DNA of 63,950 bases, filler included. It is 14 parts of 14 records of this genome, joined end to end, with 100 filler letters (N's around TTAATTAATTAA, not from the genome) between each part and the next. Parts side by side here need not be neighbours in the genome. Positions count along the whole stretch, not along the records: positions 31,416 to 34,944 come from SRR7504441_78670; 13 more parts are not named here. One strand, given 5' to 3'. Shown in pieces: positions 31,416-49,209 of the stretch. The first letter of the stretch is position 1. Each line of letters starts with the position of its first letter. The notes below the pieces were generated by a model. That model was not told the origin of the DNA, ran no database searches, and saw only the letters and a program-made list of their open reading frames with translations. Made by a program: the position numbers and the translations under genes.

Positions 31416-34400
31416 GGCACCTCGGTCTCGGGTGACAACGTGCATATCGTGCTTAGTCCGATGGATGGAGAAGACAGAAGCAAGTCAGAGCCCGAGATAC
31501 TGAGTTGTTGGACTTCGGTCCTGGCCAGTCCTCAGATGTCACAGAGGAGCCACGAGATAATGAGGCTGGAGGCGAGGTCGGACACGTTGCTGAGTATGAG
31601 CAAACGTAGGGAACCAGCTGAGGTGCAGGAGCGCATCGAGCTGTTGCAGTGCAAGGAAGCCATGCATGTTAGCTCTGATCAGGATGGGCGGACTGACATG
31701 TCAAGACAGGAGTCTTTGGAGGGCAGCACCTGGGATCGTCTTGCGGTCCGCCCCGATGATGGCAGCACCAGGGTCCTGATTGTAGGGGCCGGAGTGTATG
31801 GCCTTCCGAATGCCAGCCTTCTTGAAAATGACGACATAGTTATCGTCGACAAGAACCCAGACGTTGGAGGCATATGGAGCACATGTCGATACCCTGGTTT
31901 GCGCTTACACACGTCAACGTCGACCTATACGTTCCCAGGCTTCGACTTTGTTGATGCAGACGTCAGAGCAGATTCATCACAAGTGCATACTTATCTCCGA
32001 CGCTACTTTCAGGCTTTCTGTGGCCACAGTTGCGTGGAACTGCTCCTCAACACAGAGCTCCTTGAGATTCACGAGCTCTCTCCAGACAACCTTCAGTGTA
32101 CCCTACGCCAGGGTCTGCACACTCATCAATCCATGTTCACGCATGTCATCTTGGCCACAGGCTTCAATGTGGCCGGAGTTCCACGAATGCCCTTTCTGGG
32201 ACCAATAGTACCCGGAGTTGTACACAGTTCATTGCTGACAAATGATCTCGTGCTGACTGCGGAGTCAATCATTGTTGTTGGTGCCGGTAAGTCAGCCATG
32301 GATATACTTGTTGATCTAAAGATGCGCCACGGGAAAGATGTTCTGTGGACAGCGAAGAGTTTTCTTTGGTTCATCAACAGGGCAAAGTTCGTTGAAAAGA
32401 GCCTGAACTTCGTCGCTGTCATTTCTGATTACGCCTGCAACAGTGGCTCCAAGGACATCATGCGCGAGGTTATGCTCGACCCAACTGGTCTGGCCGACCC
32501 TGAGCACCTGGACGAGACTCGAGGAGGTGTCATAAGCCCATACGAGAACGCAATTCTGCGACAGATTCGGTGCGTCCGTCACGAACGTATCAGCCTTTCT
32601 GGCAAGTGTGTAGTCATCGACGGAACCAGCCATCCGTTCGATTTGTGTATCTGCTGCACAGGCTTCAACAAGCCATCGATTATGCTCAATGGTAGACCTA
32701 TTCATGAAACACTTGCACCTTGTTTGAATCGAGGCATTCTTGACCCAGCGCATCCAAATATTCTCATTACTGGACTGGTGAGCTTACCTAGTAATGTCCT
32801 CAGCTCGTGGATTACAGCTCACTGGATCAATCAATACATCTGCAATAGCAGATTTCGAGGTGACGTGAACGCAAAGCCATCTAGAACCACGCACGGGTTT
32901 CACTGGTACTGGGGTGTTGACTCCCCTGGAGCATCGTCCTCTTTGCCAAAGTACGGGGACCAGCTGCGGGCTGATGCAAGCTATAATCTCGATATTTTGT
33001 TGGATCTCAAGCCCTTTGATGTGCCGCATCTCGAACATTTGATTTCATACTCTTATGGGCTTGACGACCAAACTGCTGCCTCTATGGATGCATTCGACAG
33101 TGAACTCTACACTCTCACATCTTCCAACTCAGGCGTAGGTGCGCCTGACTCTTTGCTCGAGTCCTCGAGCAAGGTAACAACAGATGCACTGCCTGCGGAG
33201 AGGAATGTGAGCGATACAATATTTGCGCTGGTCAAGGCAAAGATGCCAGACTGCACGGTAGATAACTCGCTGATAGAGGCTGGCTTGAAGTCGCAGGAGG
33301 CGCTTGCCCTAGCTCGAGAGGTGTCGATGGCTCTGGATATCCAGGTGCATGGTGCAGCTTTGGTCACGTATCCATCAGTGCGTCTGTTGGCACAACATCT
33401 CGATGCTGCTAGCGTGTGCTCAGTCAGCCTCAGTGCGGATGGGGATGCGGCCAGAGCGGCCGATGGTAGCTTGAGCAGCATCGTCCCAGTGCAGCCGGAT
33501 ATGCCCATTGTCGTCTCTGGAGTATCATGCACTACAGGAAGTAACTTCTGGGAGTTGCTGTGCAGCGGCGTAGACTACAACGCAGAAGTAGGTACAGCTG
33601 TACCTCGCGTTGACATTGCTGCGCTAGACGGAGGTCGCGTGATGCATTGTCACTTCTTAGATCGAGTGCAAATGTTTGACAATACCTTCTTCAAGATGAG
33701 TTCAGCCGAAGCTCAATGTGTCGACCCCCAGCAGCGTTTGGTTTTGGAGGCGACCTATCGCGTTTTCCTGCAAGCTGGTCAGTCAAGACTGCTGTTGGCT
33801 GGCACCAGAACCGGCGTATTTGCTGGTTCGCAGTCTGATGGCGACTGGGCTATACTGCACCACCAGCAAAAGCAGCTCAACTTGTCTCCGTATATGATCA
33901 ACGCCCTTGGGCCTGCTCCAGTCTCCGCACGTGTGTCTTTTACCTTTGGCCTTATGGGACCCTGCCTTGCTTTGGACACCAGGTGCTCTGCGTCATTGGT
34001 AGCTTGCGAGGTAGCAACTAGGAACATGCCTCCATTTGGTCGGTGCGCTCTCACTCTTGTGATTGGTGTGAACCTTGCCTTATCTGCGGTGTCGTTCCTC
34101 GGCTACGGGGAGTTCCTGGCTCGGGACGGTTTGTGCAAGACATTTGATACCTCGGCTGACGGCCTTGGGCGGGGAGAGGCTGTAAGCGCAGTAGTATTCA
34201 CCACCACGAGCGCAGCAAACTCGGATGTGCGTACAGTCGACCAGGATGGTCCTTCTGGCAGTCCTTCTGATCCCTCCTTGTTGTCGGTTTCAGTACTCGC
34301 TACTGCTACAAATCAGGATGGTCGCAGCGCTTCATTCACAGCACCAAATGGTCTCGCACAGGCTATGTTGTTACAAACGGCAGCACAAGATTGGCCACAG

Positions 34401-34944
34401 CATGGTTTCCATATGCTTGAGACGCATGGAACAGGTACTGCTCTTGGCGACCCGATCGAGATTTGGGCGATCCGAGATGCTCACAAAACAATGAAACGGC
34501 GCGGGCCACTGGTGCTAGGTGCTCTGAAGACACGGACTGCGCACACTGAGCCGGCAGCGGGCCTGGTTGGACTGATCAATAGCGTGATGACTCTCTCTTA
34601 TTCCACTCGAGTACCGAATCTGCATCTTACAATGTTGAACCCCGTCTTAGAAATCGACGGTTTCAACGTCTGTCTTTCATCCCAAGTAAAGGACGTTCCG
34701 AGGCAGCATTCCAAGGCTGTTGGAATCAGCGCATTCGGAATGACAGGTACCAACGCCCACGTGGTGCTGAGATGTAGCGAGCGAATTGTTGACTGTGGCC
34801 TCACAGGCAAGTTAGAGTCGGTGTCGGTGGTCATGTACAGGCATTGTTCGTTTGCTTGGTGGGACCCGGTGGTGAGTGCATGCGAGCCGCAAATCCTCTC
34901 TACGCACAGCGTCAGGGAGCGCTCGTGGCCTTCTGCTTCCTGCA
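31416..34944 (+). CDS. Internal fragment of a modular AT-less type I polyketide synthase: KS C-terminus, flavin monooxygenase, ACP, KS
   Basis: One frame open across the whole contig. FMO motifs GAGVYG, GGIW..RYPG, ATG, VVHSS, GAGKSAMD, CTGF; ACP EAGLKSQ; KS DPQQRL, DTRCSAS, ETHGTGTALGDPIE, AHTEPAAG, SAFGMTGTNAHV. Confidence 0.92.
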
Positions 34945-35184: not shown

Positions 35185-38100
35185 CTACAACGCGCTCGCA
35201 TCATTATGCGTGATCAGATGTCGTAATGTTTGCCCAATTCTATACCTATAATTCCCAGATGGCTCACGTTGCAAGCTGTCAATCGATCCGCAGAGAGCTA
35301 GCCCTCCCCATGGTGTGTTGCCGCACCCGCCTGCATTGAGCAGTAAGTCAGATGTCATAATATGTTTGGCGCACCTTCGCGGAGCTCCCTCATGGCACAG
35401 TCCAAATATAAGACTGTTCTCGCCCACTCTCCCAGCAAACTCTTCCTCCACCTTGCAAACAACATGTCTCACAGGCGGCCCACCACCAAGCTCACCACAG
35501 CATCCATCGCAAGCTCCTTGTAGCTGACAGCTCTGGGCTCCACAGCAACAGGCGTCCAGCGAGACCATTCTCGGTCGTCAACACCCAGCCTCGTCTGCAA
35601 CCTAGACATTACTTGCGATACTGTCTCTGTCGGCCTGCCATGAATGTCAGCAAGTTTTAAACCATTTGATTCCTCGGACCTGATGCACAGCACCGCAGGC
35701 ATCTCAAACGCAAATGTGCCTTGCTTGTTGCGCCATACATGGTTGACCTGCACTCTCCGACCTCGTGCAGGGCCACGTGTCTCATTGGCCTCCCGAGGCT
35801 CCCGAGGGTGAGTATAGAAGAACATGTCGTCTCTGGGCACTAGCTCCGCCACCAGCAGGGCAGACTGCCAACCCATCAGGGAGCAGCCCACATGCAAAAA
35901 GCTACCTGATCCAGCCGAACCAGCGGGTGGCCAGCGCGCACACACATAGCGTCCGTCATACTCGTCTCCGGGAAGTACGTAAAGTACCTGATTCACACGG
36001 ACTGTCAACGAACCAGTCCCTCAGGAAGCATACCTAATCTCTCGGTCTTCTGGTATGATAATCCCACCCAAGTCAGGCTCACAGAGATAAGTCTGCACGT
36101 CTTCTATAGTCGATGACTGCAAGCGCGTGGATCAGTACTGTCAGCCTCGGGGTAGCGGAAGCACCTTTTCCAGAAGGATCCTGTGTTTAATAGGGGTAGC
36201 GCTTGTCTCGGTGTCGAGCCATTCGACGTTGACATAGAACCCGTTCTGAACCTCCTTGACTGCGTCGCTGAGGATCTCGTAGAAGAAGAGATAACGAGAT
36301 TGCTCATACATGCTCTGATGCTCGAGTGTGGACAGCAAGGTAGTGAAAGAGTCGACCTCGATCGGAGTCTCATCCGGGATGATTTGGCGTAGCCCGTAAC
36401 TCCGCGCAGGCAGGTAGAGCTGCACGTGATCTGCGTCTGGCAATTCAGGCTGGTCTGTGCGCGTGGCCTCCCGTAGTTGCTGGGCACAGCTGGCTTGCAG
36501 CTGGGCACAAATAGTCGCAGTCACTTGCTCATAGTTCATTCTTAGATCCAGCTTGCAGCGCATTCCTGGCGGCAGCCCAGTTTGAGGTGCGTCTGGGCTG
36601 TAAAAGTCGGCTTTGCTGATCAGCTCCACCGGCACCATGCTCAGATGTCTCTCGAGCAGGTTGAGATTGTCTATCGTGTCATCCGCGTTCATGATGTATA
36701 GGACCTCTCCCATGATCAACTCTTCGGATATTTTTCTTTGCCAATTGTGAAGTGTCAAGGCTGAGTTCGAGCTCTCTCTCTTCGCTAAAAGAGTCTTCTC
36801 GCCCCAATTTGTAGGGTACGACTCCAGAAAGGCGCGGAATGTAGTGTCATTGTCTACCATGACAGCCTTCAGCTCTTCGAAATCTCTATTCACAACGTGG
36901 CCATTCTGCTCCTGACTACTATTCTGTACGCAGAATATCACCAGGTGGCCTTTCTCGTCAGAACCATGACTGCCTATTGCACGGCGATAATCGAATTCCG
37001 ATAGCTCCATGGCTACAATATGCAACGGGGGATACATACGCATCTGTTCGAGTATGTCCGAAATCTGCAGTTGTAGCGGTATGCAGTGCAGTCTTTCCCT
37101 CCCATAGTAGAGCCACAATGTCCACATAGTACGCCCAGTTTTGTCTGTTAACTCCCCTAACTCTTCAGTCAGCTGTTTAGCCATCATTTCTTTGTTTAAC
37201 CTCATGGGCCGGATGGCGTTCCAATCGACCGGTATGTCCTCCTTGATTGTGCACAGCTCAGCTGCTTCTTTGTAATCGTGTGGAAACATTGCCAACTGTA
37301 CATCCGCCTGTAAGTGCTGAAGCCGCATTTCCTCTTCCTGGCGCTTTTGAGCCTCTAGTTCACGGTCTCTCCTCTCCTCGAGGTGAGCCGGCGCCTGGAC
37401 CTCACTACATCTAGGTACCTTGTCCAGCCAGTCCTCGCGGACGTACACAAGCATGTAGGCATTCGTGCGCTTTGGCATCCCACGGCGCACCCCTTGCTCA
37501 ATCTCACCCCCATACCCATCGTCCATCCATCTGGTATCAACCACCTCACGCACTTCATCGTCGTCGAACTTGTACCACTTGCTCCCGGGAGCATGCCGCA
37601 GGTACACGTAGTAGTGCCCGGCATGTACGTCGCCCCCATGGATGAGCACCGAATGAAGCACGTACACGTTGTCCACAGGCTCAGCGGCAGCCGCTGCTTC
37701 AGTGCTGCTTGGTGCGTCAGCAGGCGGTCCTTCCCCAGACGGACCGGCTTCGGCTGGGCCAGCGTTGCCTTGCTGCAAAGGACGATTCTCACCGGCTGCA
37801 GCACCTGGCTGGGCCGCTTCCTCTGCAGCTGCCGGTGGCTCACTAGGCGCAGCCCCTGGTTCAGCGGCATCGCTTTGTATATACTTGTTCAGATCGAGCC
37901 GATCTGGGAACTCAAACCTATCGTTGACCTGAGCCATCACAGCTTAGCGCAAAAGTAAAGTGCCGCAAACCTTGACCATCATGTCGCGCTGGAAGTCATA
38001 CTCGAAGCGCATCAGGTGGATGTGCAGCACCGGTGGGAGCGAAAGGAACCGCTTGCCCATCTTGGCATCCTACCCACCAGATCACAACTCCGGCCCTGTA

Positions 38101-39683
38101 GATTTGCTCACCTGCAGCCCGTGTCCCTCTGCTTGATACTTGTTCTCGCCGTCCATTGTCTCGACTTCAATGTACTTATCGAACGCAGCATAAATGTTCT
38201 GCGCCACATGGATCAGTTTGCAGAACGACCCCGGCGATACCCCGAGCCCCTTGACGTTCAATGAGATATCATAAAACTCCTCCTCGCGAGTCGAGCGGAA
38301 GTCGACGTTGATGCAGGCTATATAGTTCTCGAGTCTCCCCTTAAACATATCCGCCAGCGCGCCCTCAAGGTCCGTCCCCTTCATTTTCTCCTCAAGCTTA
38401 TCAAACAGCAGTCGGCATAGCTCTTGCACATCATGCTGTTCAAAAGCTTCCATCCCATCCCATCCAAACGCTTGGGTGAGCTCCCTTGTGCTGACCGCCT
38501 TTGAGGTAACCTGAAGCGCAAAGAACACGCGCTGCAGCGCAAGCACGATGCTCCGTTCGCTTTTGTCCCGAGAGACGGCCGCCTTAATGTCCTGAGTGGG
38601 TATGCCGTATACCGATCTACGGAACTCAGTGAGATGGTAAAGAGTCTGCAGCAGCGAATTCATGTAGCAGGTCGCCCCTTGGTTGTCAAACCCAACGTAA
38701 CCAGTCTCCTCCTTTGAGTCGTACGGCAACCAATGCTCCCGCTCGCTCCCTGGCCAGCCCAACCTTAACTGCGGCCAGACACTGCGCAGCGAACCTTCCA
38801 ACCGCCACAGCTCGATGTGCAGATGCAACCACCCGCTCCCTGGGTGATCACCGGGGTGCACATATTTCTCCTTGACGTGATCTATCGCGCTTATCGGAGC
38901 CATCAGCATGCTCTTCATCTGTAGCGACAGGTCACGCAGCCCAGGCGGTCCAGGTGAAACCGTGTGATCCTTTGAGAACCCGAAACGAAATCGCTGCATG
39001 AAATCACTCTGACTGTTATCCTGTGCACATCAGCCGTACTGAGTTGGGTCCGAGCACGCTGGGGGCACCACAGGGAGTAGCCGGCAGACCACGTGCAGTG
39101 CTTCCTTGGCTTTCGGTTCATGCTGCGCATCCAGAAGACTGATCCCTGCAGTCAGCCCGTGCTGGGTATCACATTTCATCCAGAGCTGCCACTGATGCCC
39201 CTCAAATTCAAACGGCTCCATTAGAGCCGGCTGCGACCGCACAGCGCCTCAGCCTGCGCCGCGGCCCGCGGCACACCGAGTCATTTTTCAACTCCGTGGT
39301 GTGAACTCGGAAGGTCTTTATGTACTGCGCCGGCGGCAGGGCGGGTTGCGTCACTGGTCCTGCCGCAGGCATCAGTGAGCACTTCTCGTTTCGTCGGGCA
39401 ATCCTAGACCGTGGTTCAAATGACTATCAGCGCACCTTCGGCCTCGATCACTCGGTCCGACGAGACGCGGCTCCGATGGCCGGGATGACGCCGCAACCGC
39501 GCCCGCTCATCACCGTCATCTGCCAGCCGAGCGCTCATCGGAAACGGCAGCGAGGCCAGCGGGACCGCCGAGCATGGAGGCGGTGCCATTGTCGTCGTAC
39601 TCGACCCCGGAGGACTCGCCGTCCGAGTAGCTGCTGTCCTCCTCCTCCGAGTCTGGATGCCCTCCCATGGCATTGCCCTGCAT
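35185..39683 (-). CDS. USP7/Ubp15-like deubiquitinase (MATH-like, USP, UBL region)
   Basis: YDSKEETGYVGFDNQGATCYMNSLLQ, QHDVQE, VNDRFEFP, HGGDVHAGHYY, WYKFDD, NAYMLVY; N-terminal MATH-like FEFEGHQWQLW...FGF. Several short introns; ends approximate. Confidence 0.88.
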
Positions 39684-42319: not shown

Positions 42320-45083
42320 TCAGGTATCGAGGGATACCTCGCTTGGACTCATCCTGCCGCCCATGGTAGGCAAGGTCGAAGCCCCACTCCGCTGCAGCGC
42401 CGACTCCTCGTGCATCCGATTTGTCTCAAACTCCGAGACCAGCAAGCTCCTCAAATTCTCCACATTCACCTCCGACGCCACTTTCTCCTCTCGCAGCTGC
42501 CCGATCACAGTGTCCCTCATGATCAATTCGGTCTCGAGCCTCTTCAAATTGAGCTCGGCCTCCAGCCGCTCCTGATCGTTCACTGCCAGCTCCGCTTTGA
42601 GCTTCTGCAGGCTCCGCCTGAGCTCGCGCTCACTTGAGACTACTCCAGTCATCTCGAGATCGGTCGACCTGAGCTCGTTCTTGACCATCCGCAACTCAAG
42701 GCTCATCGTGACCACCTCCCGCCGAAAGGCCGCCTGCGCCCGCCAGCAGTGCCAGCTGCTCATTAGACTGCGCTGCACCGCTAGTGGAGACGCCTGGGCC
42801 TTCCGCCGGATCTGCTGTGCGTTCTGTGCCTGGGCGATTGCCTGGTCTCGAACCCTGGCTTGTCGCTTGAGCTGGCTCACTTCCCCGTCTTTTGCCTTCA
42901 TCTGCACCTTTAGCTCGTCGAGCGAGCTCTCAGTCAACTGCCTCTTACGCTCCTTTGCAGCCAGCTCCGCCTTGAGCTCGGCGAGTTGCCACTCTTGCTT
43001 CTCCGTGCTTCGCTCTAGATCTTTCTCCCTCGAGCACTGCGATTGGTTCTCTGCCCGGAGCCCCGCTGTCTCCCTCTCCGCAGTTTCCACTGCAGCCTGC
43101 AGCCGAGAGATCTCGGACTCCAGGGACTGGGCCAGCTGCTTCCGAGCCTTGTGTTCCTCGTTGGCTGCCCGACTCTCATCCTGCTGCATTGCCAACTCTG
43201 CTTCCACACGGCTCAGGCTCTTCTGTGCATCCTCATCCCGTGACAAGAGCAATGTGTGCTCTGCCATTTTGCTTTCGAGATCGGCTTCCAGCGATGCCAC
43301 ACGCAGCTTGAGCTGCTCTTCTCGCTGCAGCGCTTCAGCATGCTTTCCTTCTAACGCTGTGAAGTCCAAGTCTTGCGATTCCAGGAGCCCGCGCATGCGG
43401 CTTGTGTGCTGCTCCAGCTCGCTGCTTCTCTGAGATGTCGACAGTTGCTCTCGCGCCAGCTCCTCAAGCTCAGCTTCCTTTTTCTTGAGCGCAGCTTCTG
43501 TCTTATCCTTCATTGAAGCCTCTGCCCAAAGCGCTTTGCCTCTTGAGAGCGACGCCGCCAGCTCGCGCTCCTGCTCTTTCAGCTCATGCTCCTTCTCGAA
43601 CACAGTGTCTTTTAGCTTGCGCATCTCCTCCTCCAGCGTTTGTATCTGCTGCCTCTCGGACTGCAGCTTGGCTATACTCTCTGCGTTCTCCAGCTCTCTG
43701 GCACTGTAATTTTCACTCAAGTTGGAGTATTGTTTTGTCCGATGGGTGAGCTCGGCATTCAGTTTGGTGTAGCTGCTTTCTAGTGCTGTCTCTCTTGATG
43801 AAGATTGAACCAGTTTCTTGTCCAGCTCCTTCGACTCTCTGGTCTTGGCTTCCAGCTCAGCTCGAAGCCGGGCCAAATCATCGAGAAATCCTTGTTCCTT
43901 GGCTGACCACGCTGCATGCTGCGTGGCTAACTCCTGCTCAAGCACTCCGCTTCGCCTCTCGCGCGCTGAGATTTGGCTTTGCATTTGGATTGTGGTGGCC
44001 TGATCTTGCGATTTTAGTGAGTCAAGCTCCTGCTGCAGTCGCCAACACTCGCGCTCCTGAGTTACTAGCTCCTCATTCAGCCTGACAACATCTTCCTTCA
44101 GGTTCTTCCTATCGTGTGACACGAACCACATGCGCCAGCACTGCCAAGACTCCAAAAACACATTCCTCAAAAGAGACAGCCGGCGTGCGTCCAGGTAGCT
44201 ACTCATTGTGACCCTATGCGTGTCCTTGAGTCGCAATGCTTGGTGCTCCTGTTCTTTCTCCCTCGACAGAGACGAGGCAAGCTCAGTTTGCAACCCTCCC
44301 AGCTGGGCCTCCTTGTGTTCCAGTGCGGCTGCCAGTTCGCTGCATCTTGATAGCAGTTCCTCACGCTCTCTGTCCCAGCTTACTTGAAGCATAGAAGTCA
44401 GTTCGTGCATCTCCTTCTCCCGTGCACCTGCGGCCTCTAGCTCTCCTTTCTTGAGATTCAATTCAGCATGAGATTTGCCTAGATCCTTGGCTAGCTCCTG
44501 CTGCCTTAGTGATGAGAGATCTTCCCTGCTTTCTGCCACCCGTTTCAATTTTCCCAGCTCTCGCTCTCTCCCTTGGGCATCAAGCTCCAGGTCATTCAAG
44601 CGCTCCAGGGCCTGCTGTTCTCGCATCAAGGCTATCCTATGCTCGTCCTTCATCTGACCAAGCGCTGTGGTCTGTGATTCCAACTCCTGTTTGAGGCTCG
44701 ACACTATCTGCTCCTGCTCAATCTCCCTGCATACGGAATGAGCCAGCTGCGCTTCCAGTCCCTTTACTTCGACCTCCTTATCCTGTACTTTAGCCTCCAA
44801 TCCGATATTCTTGTGCTGATTCTGACGCAGTTGGCGCCACAATCGCCACGACTTGAGCGATGAAACCAACCTTGCAAAGTCAACAACATGCCACACGCGC
44901 TGGGTCACTTCACCTAACCTTGTGCGACTTTCCATTTTTCTGTCAGCATTTGTCCTCCAAGTTCTAAGACATCGACCAGAAGCATTGTGCATATACCTGG
45001 CTGCAGCATACATGAGCTTTACAGCCTTTTCTGATTGCTTTCTGGCTGCTGAATGCCATTGCCTCATTGCTCTCGCGCCCTGT
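42320..45083 (-). CDS. Long coiled-coil protein with Sfi1-like Trp repeats, 5'-partial
   Basis: Over 900-aa intronless ORF with E/L/K/Q heptads and repeated xWxxWR motifs. Confidence 0.75.
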
Positions 45084-45183
45084 NNNNNNNNNNNNNNNNN
45101 NNNNNNNNNNNNNNNNNNNNNNNNNNNTTAATTAATTAANNNNNNNNNNNNNNNNNNNNNNNNNNNNNNNNNNNNNNNNNNNN

Positions 45184-45648: not shown

Positions 45649-48600
45649 TTATGCACTGTGGAGCTTCTTCATATCAGCTAGGAGGTCCTCATCGATTGTG
45701 ACTTTAGAAGCAGACTCCACAAAATCCGGAATTTCGTCAAAGTTAAGGTAGCGGTAGATTTCTCCAGACATTGAGTCCAGCTTGCTCTGGTACTCAAGAT
45801 ACTCCTCAAACGTGGGGAGCTTACCCATCACTGCGGCCACAGACGCGAGCTCTGCCGATGCCAGGTACACGTCGGCCCCATTTCCAAGTCGGTTGGGGAA
45901 GTTCCTTGTTGATGTCGACACGCACGTTGTCTTGTCAGCAACCCGAGCCTGGTTGCCCATGCAAAGCGAGCAGCCAGGCATTTCAGTCCGTGCCCCGACC
46001 CGGCCGTATGTGTAATAGTAGCCCTCTGCGTGCAGCTGTGCAGCATCCATCTTGGTCGGAGGGCACACCCAAAGCTTAGTGGGCACAGAGCCAGGGACCT
46101 CCTCCAGCAGTTTACCAGCAGCCCGGAAATGTCCAATGTTTGTCATGCACGATCCAATGAACACCTCGTCGATGGGAGTGCCAGCAACTTCAGCGAGGGT
46201 CTTGGCGTCATCTGGGTCGTTCGGGCAGCACACGATCGGCTCCTTGATGTCCTCGAGGTCGATGTGGAACTCATAAGCATACTCGGCCTCTTTATCCGCC
46301 CGCATCAGCTTGGGATCCGCAAGCCAAGCCTCCATCTTAGCAATACGCCGCTCGAGTGTGCGCACGTCGCCGTAGCCCTCTGAGATCATCCACTTGAGCA
46401 TCACAACGTTCGAGTTCAGGTATTCCCTGATTGGAGCCTCATTGAGAGCAATCGAGCACCCGGCAGCAGATCGCTCAGCAGACGCGTCGGACAGTTCGAA
46501 TGCCTGCTCGCACTTGAGGTCCTCGAGTCCCTCGATCTCGAGCACCCGGCCGTTGAAGACGTTGATCTTGTTGGCCTTGGGCACAGTGAGCTGCCCCTCT
46601 TCGATCGCCCGGAGAGGGATTGCGTGCACGAGGTCTCTCAGCGTGATCCCAGGCTGGATTTTGCCAGAGAAACGCACCAGCACAGACTCTGGCATATCCA
46701 ATGGCATCACGCCTGTAGTGGCCGCGAATGCCACAAGCCCGGAGCCCGCAGGGAATGAAATCCCCAACGGGAACCGTGTGTGCGAGTCGCCTCCCTGATG
46801 GGGCGGTCAGTACGCGGTCTGTTTCGGGCGGAGTACCGTGCCAACGCAGTCAGGGATCAGCATCCTGTTGAGCCACGAGTGGATGATTCCATCACCAACC
46901 TTGAGCGAAACGCCGCCTGCCCGGCAGCTCCGGCCAGTCACCCAGCAGGCAGAGTCACCTCGTGTCCGGATAAAATCTGGTAGCGTAAACTGCATCGCCA
47001 CATCCGACGGCTTGGGGTAGGCAGCCGTGTGGCAGAACGACTGCATCACAAGATCCGCCGAGAACCCGAGGCACGCCAGGTCCTTGAGCTCGTCCCGGGT
47101 CATGGGACCGGTGGTATCCTGCTCGCCATGAGTCAGGCTGACCCGTGTGGGCAGCTGCCTGCGAGCCGACTGTGGTCATCTTGGGCTCACAGAACTGCCC
47201 TGGAAGCACGCCCTCCATCCCACAGGCCTTGCCCACCATCTTCTGCGCCAGTGTGTACCTGCCACTGGCTTCACACTGCCTGGGCCGCCAGCCCGCACCC
47301 TTTGACGCTGTCTGCACCCTCCGGAGGAGGTGCTTGTCTGAAGATTGTCGTTTCGGGGAGTCCGAGGGTCTCACGGGCCTTGGCCGTCACGTTCCGGCCG
47401 ATGATGAGCGGGATACGGCCGCCGGCCTGGACCTCGTCCCTGAGGACCTCGGTCTTGAGTGCGAAAGTGCTCAACTCCTGCGCTCACCCCTCAGCGACTT
47501 GCCGCTCGAGAGAGCACCTCGCCAGTTTCATGGTCCGTGACCACTCCGTTGACAGTGTCAACATCGATCACCCGGCCCATGTGCAGCTTGTCCACATCCA
47601 TCTCGAGCGGGAGCGCACCGGCGTCCTCCATCGTGTTGTAGAAGATCGGTGCAATCTTATTCCCAATGCACACTCCGCCTGCGCGCGGCTCGACAACCGG
47701 GCTGGGGCCAGGTCGCACCGCCCCGCTTGTTGGGCAGGTACGGGATGTCGTCTCCCATGTACCACAGCACCGAGTTCGTGGCCGACTTTCGCGACGATCC
47801 AGTCCCGACCTGTGCAGCCGTCACACCCGGCGCCTGGCGCAACACGCACCACGTCGCCCGTGTACACGAGCTGGTGGCCCTTGGCCTTGAGCTCCTTCAT
47901 CAGGGCCTGCGCGTCGTCGATCCCGTCGCGCGCGATCTTGAGCATAGCCAGCCCGTGCAGCGGGATGTCAGGACGAGACCAAGCGTCGGGTGCAGGCGAT
48001 AGGTCGTCTGTGTTGGTCTCTCCTGTGACTTTGAAGACGGTGAGCGTGTACTTCTCCTGGAGCTTCGGCTTCGAGGTGAACCACTCGGCCTCGGCCCAAG
48101 ATTCGAGCACTGCGGTCGCGTTTGCGTTGCCCGCTTTGTGCAGGTCGACAATGTCATGGTATGCATCATACACCAGCGTGATGTGCTGCACACACCGGTG
48201 AGCTAGATCCCGGGCTGGAGCACACCTTGAGCTGATCAGCCGCCAGCGCCCCGAGGCCGCTGTCCTCGAGCAGTTCGATCTGCCCAGGATTCAGCACCCG
48301 CCCACCCCGCCCGCGAGCACCAGCGGCGCGACGCAATAGCCGCCCTGCATGGTTCCGAGTAGCTTGACCGCCTCCTCCCGGGACACGATCGGGCTGCTGG
48401 TCTCGCCCTTGGCCACCGCACTCAGGAAACCCACCTGCGGCCGGCGGCTGGCCCTGGGGCCCCGCGGGCTCAGCGGTTGCCTTCACGTAGGCGGCCTCGT
48501 CGACTCCGGGCGGGATCCGGTTGGTGAGCAGGTCGAGCACGGCGTCGCCTTCGTCCTTGGGGTCCTGGGCCAGCTCGACCAGCGCGGCGCATTGCTCGGC

Positions 48601-48795
48601 GTCGATCGGTTTGGGCGGCATCTCGGCGGTCGGGTGGAGCGCAGCCCGCTCCTCGATCTGGGCTTGGTATTGCTCCATGAAAGCCGAGGCGAACCGAGCC
48701 CCGGAGGTCCGCTGAAACATCGATGCCGACACCCCAGGCACCCGGCTCTGCCGCATCATCCACCGCCGCGCTACGTTCATACCGGCGGGCAGCAT
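45649..48795 (-). CDS. acnB: Aconitate hydratase B (bacterial-type AcnB) with mitochondrial-like presequence
   Basis: [84 protein letters not shown]; 10 short introns; Arg/Ser-rich, acid-free N-terminal 35 aa. Confidence 0.95.
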
Positions 48796-49209
48796 AGTCG
48801 CTCGCAACCGATTTGCCGTTGGAAAATGCGGCCCGGGTGGTTGCTCGGCTGGGCCACGTGCCAGTGGGTGGCGGCGGGGGGTGCGAGGCTCGAGTTCGGA
48901 GGGCCCAGCATCGTGGCCGGCCCCGAGTGCCCGACAAGCCAGGGCGGGGTGCGCCGCCCCCACCTGCAGGGTGACCGGCGGTCGCAGGGGCCGTGGTGGG
49001 GGGGTGGCTGGGGCGGGGCAGGCTGGGCGGCACCNNNNNNNNNNNNNNNNNNNNNNNNNNNNNNNNNNNNNNNNNNNNTTAATTAATTAANNNNNNNNNN
49101 NNNNNNNNNNNNNNNNNNNNNNNNNNNNNNNNNNCGGCAGACAGGCGACCGATTGGGGCCTCCCCCTGTGTGCAGCCGCACAGACCTAAGCAGCACCGCT
49201 CAGAACAAG

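Follow-up and report, generated by a model that had tools for sequence, protein, structure and literature searches.

A polyketide synthase fragment with a built-in class B flavoprotein monooxygenase: a candidate for on-line chain oxygenation in a probable marine eukaryote

The window analysed here, 63,950 bases long, is made up of 14 contigs, each of 3.0-6.7 kb, with 13 spacers between them that consist of N runs around TTAATTAATTAA, and exactly one of these contigs, at 31416-34944 (3529 bases), carries the polyketide synthase (PKS) sequence that is the subject of this report. Its frame 1 encodes, in order, a possible ketosynthase (KS) end, a linker, a class B flavoprotein oxygenase (Ox) domain, a helical linker, an acyl carrier protein (ACP) and a KS. 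We read the contig as a piece of a modular type I PKS gene, most likely from the marine eukaryote of the assembly, whose Ox domain would oxygenate the growing chain on-line, and we give this reading a probability of roughly 0.55. In the scheme that we propose the upstream KS would extend the chain onto the ACP, itself loaded by an acyltransferase encoded elsewhere, and the tethered intermediate would stay a beta-keto thioester; the built-in oxygenase would then oxygenate this carrier-bound intermediate, and the KS of the next module would accept the oxygenated product. Should the reaction be a Baeyer-Villiger (BV) insertion of oxygen beside the beta-ketone, the chain would acquire an ester or a site for later cleavage. 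We know of no enzymes that account for the chain oxygens and missing carbons of marine protist polyketides, for which ordinary PKS chemistry offers no explanation. Oxygenases of bacterial trans-acyltransferase (trans-AT) PKSs, built in or attached, do such backbone editing, and a fused Ox-ACP in a eukaryotic-type PKS would, if true, show that this bacterial device exists in protists too. The features of the contig are as follows, residues being those of frame 1.

31416..31457, plus strand: possible C-terminal end of an upstream KS (residues 1-14, GTSVSGDNVHIVLS), from a weak match to the end of a KS hidden Markov model (HMM).
31458..31766, plus strand: ~104-residue linker leading from the KS end to the oxygenase, in open frame with no Pfam or NCBIfam match; the other five frames hold 2-8 stops each.
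31767..32996, plus strand: class B flavoprotein monooxygenase (Ox; residues ~118-527), from Pfam families, an AlphaFold2 (AF2) model and VIA-align.
31785..31802, plus strand: GxGxxG motif binding flavin adenine dinucleotide (FAD), here GAGVYG (residues 124-129), its three glycines kept in 46 of the 47 other members of the oxygenase clade.
31866..31910, plus strand: GGIWSTCRYPGLRLH (residues 151-165, the last being His165), from the motif scan; the His is typical of the clade.
32205..32231, plus strand: degenerate fingerprint IVPGVVHSS (residues 264-272; FxGxxxHSS in relatives), from the motif scan and the alignment.
32280..32297, plus strand: second dinucleotide (NADPH) motif GAGKSA (residues 289-294), with Lys292 found in all 47 other clade members.
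32997..33206, plus strand: helical linker between oxygenase and ACP with the motif (A/R)xMDxFDxE(L/I)Y, its AF2 helices at lower confidence; the motif is also present in the relative P0110 and in P0030, an environmental fragment.
33207..33413, plus strand: ACP (residues 598-666), with Ser626 at 33291-33293 within GLKS, from an ACP HMM and a Pfam PP-binding match just below cut-off.
33504..34772, plus strand: KS (residues 697-1119), with Cys857 (33984), His1004 (34425) and His1043 (34542), from Pfam, NCBIfam, the KS HMM and motifs.
34773..34944, plus strand: tail of 57 residues 3' of the KS, in open frame, with no family match in Pfam or NCBIfam.

The single uninterrupted frame that the original prediction had seen is indeed there, with no stop across all 1176 codons, for which the chance in random sequence of this base composition is about 7.6e-23; the remaining five frames carry stops in nearly every segment, linkers included. 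A donor-like GTGAGT lies within the 3' tail at 34872, in phase 0 and 73 bases ahead of the contig end, and part of the tail may be intron.

On its modelled fold the oxygenase is confidently placed with the class B flavoprotein monooxygenases, which share the two-Rossmann architecture of flavin-containing monooxygenases (FMOs) and Baeyer-Villiger monooxygenases (BVMOs), in agreement with the FMO/BVMO type named in the original prediction. Its AF2 model, built on a 53-sequence alignment, reached a predicted local distance difference test score (pLDDT) of 83.1 and a predicted template modelling score (pTM) of 0.85, and in both Foldseek and VIA-align the top matches were solely class B monooxygenases. 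The 50 VIA-align matches listed (Z 22.7-27.8) are all monooxygenases of FMO or BVMO type except YpdA, a related disulfide reductase that binds two dinucleotides. DiatB leads at Z 27.8 over 383 aligned residues; the Ox-ACP didomain of LbmA (8odw) follows at Z 24.7 (397 residues, root mean square deviation 3.8), with small bacterial FMOs near Z 24 and type I BVMOs near Z 23. Because these Z values lie so close together, the fold does not assign a subclass. Of the Pfam families matched over residues 119-323, NAD_binding_8 (26.8 vs 21.9) and Lys_Orn_oxgnase (24.6 vs 21.3) pass their cut-offs, and Pyr_redox_3 (28.6 vs 30) and FMO-like (20.2 vs 22) fall just short. The NCBIfam matches to the oxygenase were only far-sub-threshold ones, to the ArsO, trimethylamine monooxygenase and PtlE models. 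As to its extent, a full FMO with both Rossmann motifs had been placed at about 31770-32850; the domain and both motifs, GAGVYG and GAGKSA, are present, but it ends at about 32996.

In a tree of 137 oxygenases the domain falls, with a support of 0.999, within a clade of 48 leaves (47 others, with 89 sequences outside) that contains five of the six sampled oxygenases embedded in PKS or adenylation-carrier proteins; its position inside the clade has a support of 0.035. His165 is common to 37 of the 47 other members, and most of the 89 sequences outside have Gln (47), Asn (18) or Asp (8) at this site. Type I BVMOs carry the fingerprint FxGxxxHxxxW[P/D] and a second motif, [A/G]GxWxxxx[F/Y]P[G/M]xxxD. 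The sequence GGIWSTCRYPGLRLH fits the second motif save at its last position, where it has His instead of Asp. A regular-expression scan for F.G...H...[YFW] found the fingerprint nowhere in the protein, the corresponding region reading IVPGVVHSSLL. With FxGxxxH missing, the fingerprint gives no support for a place among the type I BVMOs; by sequence, type I BVMOs match the N-terminal part only, at E 3e-5 or weaker.

The degenerate fingerprint IVPGVVHSS, the GLKS of the ACP in place of the usual GLDS and the very long branches in both the KS and oxygenase trees could indicate an oxygenase that is catalytically dead, or a decaying gene, with the domain kept as a mere spacer. We hold this to be very unlikely: the 1176 codons stay open (chance ~8e-23), both dinucleotide motifs, GGxW, His270, Lys292, Asp296 and DxxxxxTG are intact, the AF2 fold of the oxygenase is confident, and the related environmental fragments described below keep the same motifs at 33-54% identity.

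The remainder of the module is that of a PKS. Pfam recognizes the N-terminal KS domain at residues 697-932 (5.3e-42, 144.6 bits), the C-terminal KS domain at 960-1071 (4.2e-24, 85.3 bits; cut-off 20.8 for each) and, at 1098-1120, part of the KS C-terminal extension, while a KS HMM of 422 positions, built from 90 KS domains with this one excluded, gives it 339 bits. By its NCBIfam fits the KS is assigned to the modular PKSs, the PKS profiles scoring 1.1e-82 (PKS_plus_SDR) and 1.5e-74 against only 4e-19 for PfaA and 2e-15 for FabF. Its catalytic triad was described as intact in the original prediction, and we find it so, in DTRCSAS (Cys857), HGTGT (His1004) and AHT (His1043). The Pfam PP-binding score of the ACP is marginal (residues 611-662, 20.3 bits vs a cut-off of 20.8), and an HMM was therefore built from nine ACPs of the PKS matches; it gave a single match, at residues 598-666 (model positions 8-76 of 80, E 6.4e-7), in which Ser626, the serine earlier assigned to codon 33291, falls on the conserved GlDS serine, the motif reading GLKS rather than GLDS. 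The NCBIfam Pks13 profile, an ACP followed by a KS, covers residues 609-1119, and the weak PDB sequence matches of the ACP part are all (7 of 7) to carrier domains or carrier-bearing synthases. A single-sequence AF2 model of this part (pLDDT 42.3) was unusable.

At the 5' end the KS-like C-terminus of the original prediction is retained only as a possibility: there is a match to the end of the KS HMM, but it comprises 11 residues (4-14, on model positions 408-418 of 422) and is weak, with an E of 0.03-0.05 for one sequence. The match of one metagenome contig of 504 bases is confined to this region, at 31419-31458 (40 bases, 4 differences), after which the contig diverges; another module, or a paralogue from this or a related organism, may be the source of this conserved KS end. 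As proposed earlier, no acyltransferase is seen, neither Pfam nor NCBIfam giving a match to that family anywhere on the contig, which covers the visible module. The 104-residue stretch between KS end and oxygenase is too short for one, and an acyltransferase could lie 3' of the second KS, since only 57 residues follow there. Without an in-module acyltransferase, and judged from its sequence, the module would work like a trans-AT module; membership of the bacterial trans-AT lineage is not supported by the KS tree, in which the KS sits among eukaryote KS domains and away from sampled AT-less, bacterial-looking proteins such as P0284, P0280, P0205 and P0110.

What this module would do can be argued from its domain content. 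Pfam and NCBIfam find no ketoreductase (KR), dehydratase (DH) or enoylreductase (ER) family on the contig, and a beta-keto thioester is therefore expected on the ACP, provided that the upstream KS elongates. With such a substrate BV insertion would be the single most likely reaction, and since the downstream KS, with its Cys/His/His, is built to elongate, the oxidised chain would be handed on. Oxygenation of the ACP-bound chain on the assembly line is likely. That this oxygenation is of BV type, which we infer from module context only, is a tentative proposal, and we give BV insertion about the same weight as all other oxygenations combined.

Several points weigh against the BV proposal. The fold does not separate BV enzymes from hydroxylating, epoxidising and N-oxygenating ones, BVMOs, FMOs and LbmA-Ox all lying at about Z 23-25 and DiatB at 27.8. 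The fingerprint is degenerate, with Ile for Phe264 and Pro for Gly266, positions at which 39 and 38 of the 47 clade members carry F and G respectively; His270, found in 46 of the 47, is kept. The upstream KS is present by its last residues only, so that elongation by it is uncertain. Finally, among solved in-line domains the closest is LbmA-Ox, whose crystals contained ethyl glycinate and whose proposed product is an oxime, not an ester. The oxygenase might equally well act on-line through another chemistry, such as alpha-hydroxylation, epoxidation of a double bond formed upstream, or N- or S-oxygenation (e.g. to an oxime). Among bacterial integrated Ox domains that of spliceostatin epoxidises and LbmA-Ox is proposed to form oximes (PMC7586987), among in-line structures 8odw, the LbmA Ox-ACP, matches the fold best, and both the missing type I BVMO fingerprint and the weak, N-terminal type I BVMO matches point the same way. 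Yet an elongating upstream KS would, with neither KR nor DH in the module, leave a beta-ketone; no adenylation or condensation domain that would supply an amine is in view; and enzymes of the OocK type, which are not type I BVMOs either, still do BV chemistry. OocK and LbmC-Ox catalyse BV oxidation of beta-keto thioesters bound to ACP or to N-acetylcysteamine (SNAC) during chain growth, and the partner module of OocK likewise leaves a beta-ketone (PMC6174933, PMC7586987).

The combination of oxygenase, ACP and KS is not confined to this contig. Searching residues 95-600 with HMMER against 1.84 billion representatives returned 1233 oxygenase relatives at E<=1e-3, of which 75 reach E<=1e-10 and none E<=1e-30, the best full-length ones being free-standing proteins of about 520 residues with 29-31% identity. 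Only four short environmental fragments are closer (47% over 179 aa, 53% over 71 aa, 39% over 116 aa and 32% over 184 aa); in common with the present sequence they have lineage-specific stretches such as YPGLRLH, WTA(K/R)xSFLWF, DLCICCTG and HWYW, and also the post-domain linker motif. The homologue search found no longer protein containing this oxygenase part, and scans of metagenome contigs by protein and by 41-base exact word returned no relative and no identical DNA. A more distant protein of a public assembly, P0110 (3364 aa, rich in lysine and asparagine), has the order KR-KS-FMO-ACP-KS-DH-ACP followed by an LPG_synthase_C-like end, and in BLASTP its residues 1071-2130 are colinear with residues 120-1123 of our protein (E 4e-51, 21% identity), the alignment taking in the ACP serine and the linker motif between oxygenase and ACP. 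Its downstream KS has EGQGMAT in place of ETHGTGT and lacks the first catalytic His, and is therefore probably non-elongating; no relative of P0110 was found in the genomes of 185,579 prokaryote species. Other arrangements also occur, KS-AT-FMO followed by a hydrolase or thioesterase in P0036 and P0037, and AT-FMO-DH-ACP-reductase in P0145. The colinearity with P0110 argues that Ox-ACP-KS, with the oxygenase fused between KS and ACP on one polypeptide as found here, is a recurring unit and neither a one-off fusion nor an accident of assembly.

That last alternative, a chimera assembled from an oxygenase gene and a PKS gene, has to be weighed because of the metagenome coverage. The pieces that align to the contig in four runs (151-504 bases) leave 33118-33257, 33415-33589 and 33743-33889 uncovered, and the contiguity of oxygenase and ACP is thus without independent support; the original prediction had looked to reads spanning this junction, and no independent contig of the four runs bridges it, a further point that tells against our reading. 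One frame runs through all junctions, however, the order oxygenase-linker-ACP-KS is colinear with P0110 down to the linker motif, and base composition is uniform along the contig, and we consider a chimera extremely unlikely.

A eukaryotic origin of the contig, as claimed originally, is probable, although the evidence is divided. The KS phylogeny speaks for it. From 279 domain matches 91 KS domains were chosen, those with fewer than 290 aligned model positions being dropped, and in the FastTree phylogeny our KS lies in a clade of 15 leaves (support 0.80; inner clade of nine leaves 0.96) that holds all 11 named eukaryote KS (six of Bathycoccus, two each of Chrysoparadoxa and Cystoisospora, one of Toxoplasma); a fast IQ-TREE run on the 15 clade leaves plus 33 drawn at random from the other 76 recovered the same clade, with an SH-aLRT of 97.5. 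The other contigs of the window are eukaryotic, nine of their 15 long frames matching families such as UCH, RhoGEF, EF-hand and SIR2, and the UCH and aconitase B genes being split as genes with introns would be. The closest oxygenase relatives are short frames on long contigs (P0022, 179 aa on 14.7 kb; P0034, 71 aa on 8.3 kb), a pattern that fits intron-split genes and hints at a family in uncultured marine eukaryotes. Low-depth pieces of the contig, mostly at 95-100% identity, were found in metagenomes of marine and seawater origin (the index gives 20 runs of 16 studies, of which the four mentioned above were aligned), and two 151-base metatranscriptome pieces are exact matches to the KS, for which carry-over of DNA is a possible source.

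Against this stand a number of observations. The KS clade also includes a real Vibrio plasmid PKS and two KS of one further protein, and the KS sample holds no named haptophyte or dinoflagellate sequences. The G+C of the contig, 0.53, is the lowest of the 14 (the others 0.548-0.691), its G+C at third codon positions (GC3) is 0.56 as against 0.60-0.84 in eight of the nine family-supported host frames, and its codon usage correlates with that of 12 comparison frames at only 0.15-0.50. The ninth family-supported frame and two family-less frames have a GC3 of 0.39-0.49, and neither G+C nor codon usage settles the origin of the contig. No intron is visible on it, whereas the neighbouring genes have them, and in-line Ox modules have so far come from bacteria only (PMC7586987). 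It could then be that a bacterial contig, from a symbiont, prey or a contaminant, was binned with the eukaryote and carries an ordinary trans-AT oxidation module, as would suit the bacterial provenance of every in-line Ox module described (PMC7586987), the low G+C and weaker GC3, the uninterrupted 3.5-kb frame amid intron-bearing genes, the Vibrio PKS in the KS clade and the grouping of the colinear P0110 with AT-less, bacterial-looking KS domains. We regard this as unlikely. Among 7530 KS relatives the best identity is 41%, and in 5.8 billion clusters and 1.84 billion representatives nothing, bacterial proteins included, exceeds 41% for the KS or 31% for the full-length oxygenase; scans with the signature peptides of the oxygenase turned up no relative, either among 185,579 prokaryote species genomes or among IMG/VR viral contigs; and the grouping with all 11 named eukaryote KS and the split-gene pattern of the nearest oxygenase relatives argue in the other direction. 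Were the contig bacterial, it would add to a module type already known no more than one ordinary, if very divergent, example.

Among the other contigs, the UCH gene is read in two frames on the minus strand, profile positions 1-138 at 38082-39029 and 167-254 at 36141-37943, and the ~140 bases between them probably form an intron. A bacterial-type aconitase B gene (AcnB) at 45649-49032, minus strand, is spread over at least three frames that together leave parts of the profile uncovered: its C-terminal half lies at 45649-46806 (profile 485-843 of NCBIfam acnB, 630 bits), a piece at 47568-48290 (Aconitase_B_N 111-153 and Aconitase_2_N 1-65) and a piece at 48166-49032 (Aconitase_B_N 1-63). It looks like an intron-bearing gene of a eukaryote. 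A frame of 935 codons at 42320-45127, minus strand, has no Pfam match and a position-wise G+C (GC1 0.65, GC2 0.62, GC3 0.39) that is the reverse of that of the other genes; an AT skew of -0.37 at 43001-44000 falls inside this region, and the frame may be a shadow frame or encode a low-complexity protein. Rfam gave no match in the whole window, and the dinoflagellate spliced-leader motif none at <=3 mismatches.

The Ox module type itself is already known from bacteria, and a eukaryotic example would be the first if the origin holds. Our literature search, with supplementary domain tables, which may list such domains, outside its scope, found no report that a PKS of algae, haptophytes, dinoflagellates or apicomplexans contains a class B oxygenase domain, and term searches in the papers on PKZILLA, on Karenia, Gambierdiscus, Symbiodiniaceae and Chrysochromulina, and in Shelest et al. 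(2015), showed none either. The most far-reaching form of the claim is that no in-line class B monooxygenase module was known before from an assembly-line PKS of a eukaryote, that this one does BV insertion or oxidative one-carbon excision on the carrier-bound chain, and that, as suggested by the four related environmental fragments, uncultured marine protists widely share its family; we hold this to be unlikely. If true, it would supply an enzyme of the sort that has long been postulated to explain why protist polyketides have oxygens in the chain and lack carbons, and among these a BV step has been proven by labelling for DTX-4 (cited in PMC5725682). The Ox-ACP didomain, at ~570 residues, would be a small, expressible object for a direct test of the chemistry.

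Of the systems with which the module can be compared, two that the original prediction had invoked turn out to be less apt than supposed. PKZILLA-1 of Prymnesium parvum (10.1101/2024.01.29.577497) resembles our fragment in having flavoprotein domains, termed FLX, inside the AT-less modules of a giant PKS of a eukaryotic alga, with a proposed on-line oxidation; FLX are described as alpha-hydroxylases, with OocM and MupA as the cited precedents. These are luciferase-like, FMNH2-dependent TIM-barrel enzymes of subclass C (PMC10952193), and FLX would hence be unrelated to the two-Rossmann class B domain described here, a comparison made from published descriptions; the parallel drawn earlier is to another enzyme class. 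OocK and PedG had been named as precedents. With TobD they do share the proposed role, being FAD/NADPH enzymes that act on ACP-bound beta-keto thioesters where the beta-ketone is left unreduced (PMC6174933), but they are separate proteins acting in trans, compared here by description only, and our oxygenase is part of the synthase chain. The precedents that fit are Ox domains integrated into trans-AT PKSs of bacteria, such as LbmA-Ox, LbmC-Ox and the spliceostatin Ox (PMC7586987).

Algal and apicomplexan multimodular type I PKSs without acyltransferases in their modules (Shelest et al., 2015, PMC4661987; matches from Chrysoparadoxa, Toxoplasma, Cystoisospora and Bathycoccus) share the KS clade. 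The matches from these four genera are 33-37% identical to our protein and none carries an oxygenase family; a term search of PMC4661987 gave no mention of monooxygenase, oxygenase, FAD or flavin. For the oxygenase alone no solved protein is closer, in sequence (E 5e-16, residues 25-378 of the part searched) or in structure, than the flavin-dependent monooxygenase DiatB (8z12, 8z16 and 8z17; 432 residues), which has His at the site of our His165 but is free-standing, and our domain is in line. As read from the alignment, our domain has Ser at both positions mutated in deposited DiatB variants (N57 and R360). The literature search found no paper on DiatB, on 8ODW, 8Z12/13/17 or on the LbmA didomain. 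P0110 provides the same order of oxygenase, linker, ACP and KS, colinear over ~1000 residues. The closest described counterparts are LbmA-Ox and LbmC-Ox of the lobatamide PKS of Gynuella sunshinyii, where, as in our fragment, a class B Ox domain stands directly before the ACP in a module that has no acyltransferase of its own. The LbmA Ox-ACP (8odw) is nevertheless distant in sequence (phmmer E 3.5e-8, identity only ~19%), and our module has in view neither the methyltransferase domain of LbmC nor the nonribosomal peptide synthetase loader of LbmA. It differs from the Lbm system further in its host, probably a eukaryote, and in its KS, which comes from a eukaryote-dominated clade and, downstream of the oxygenase, keeps the Cys/His/His.

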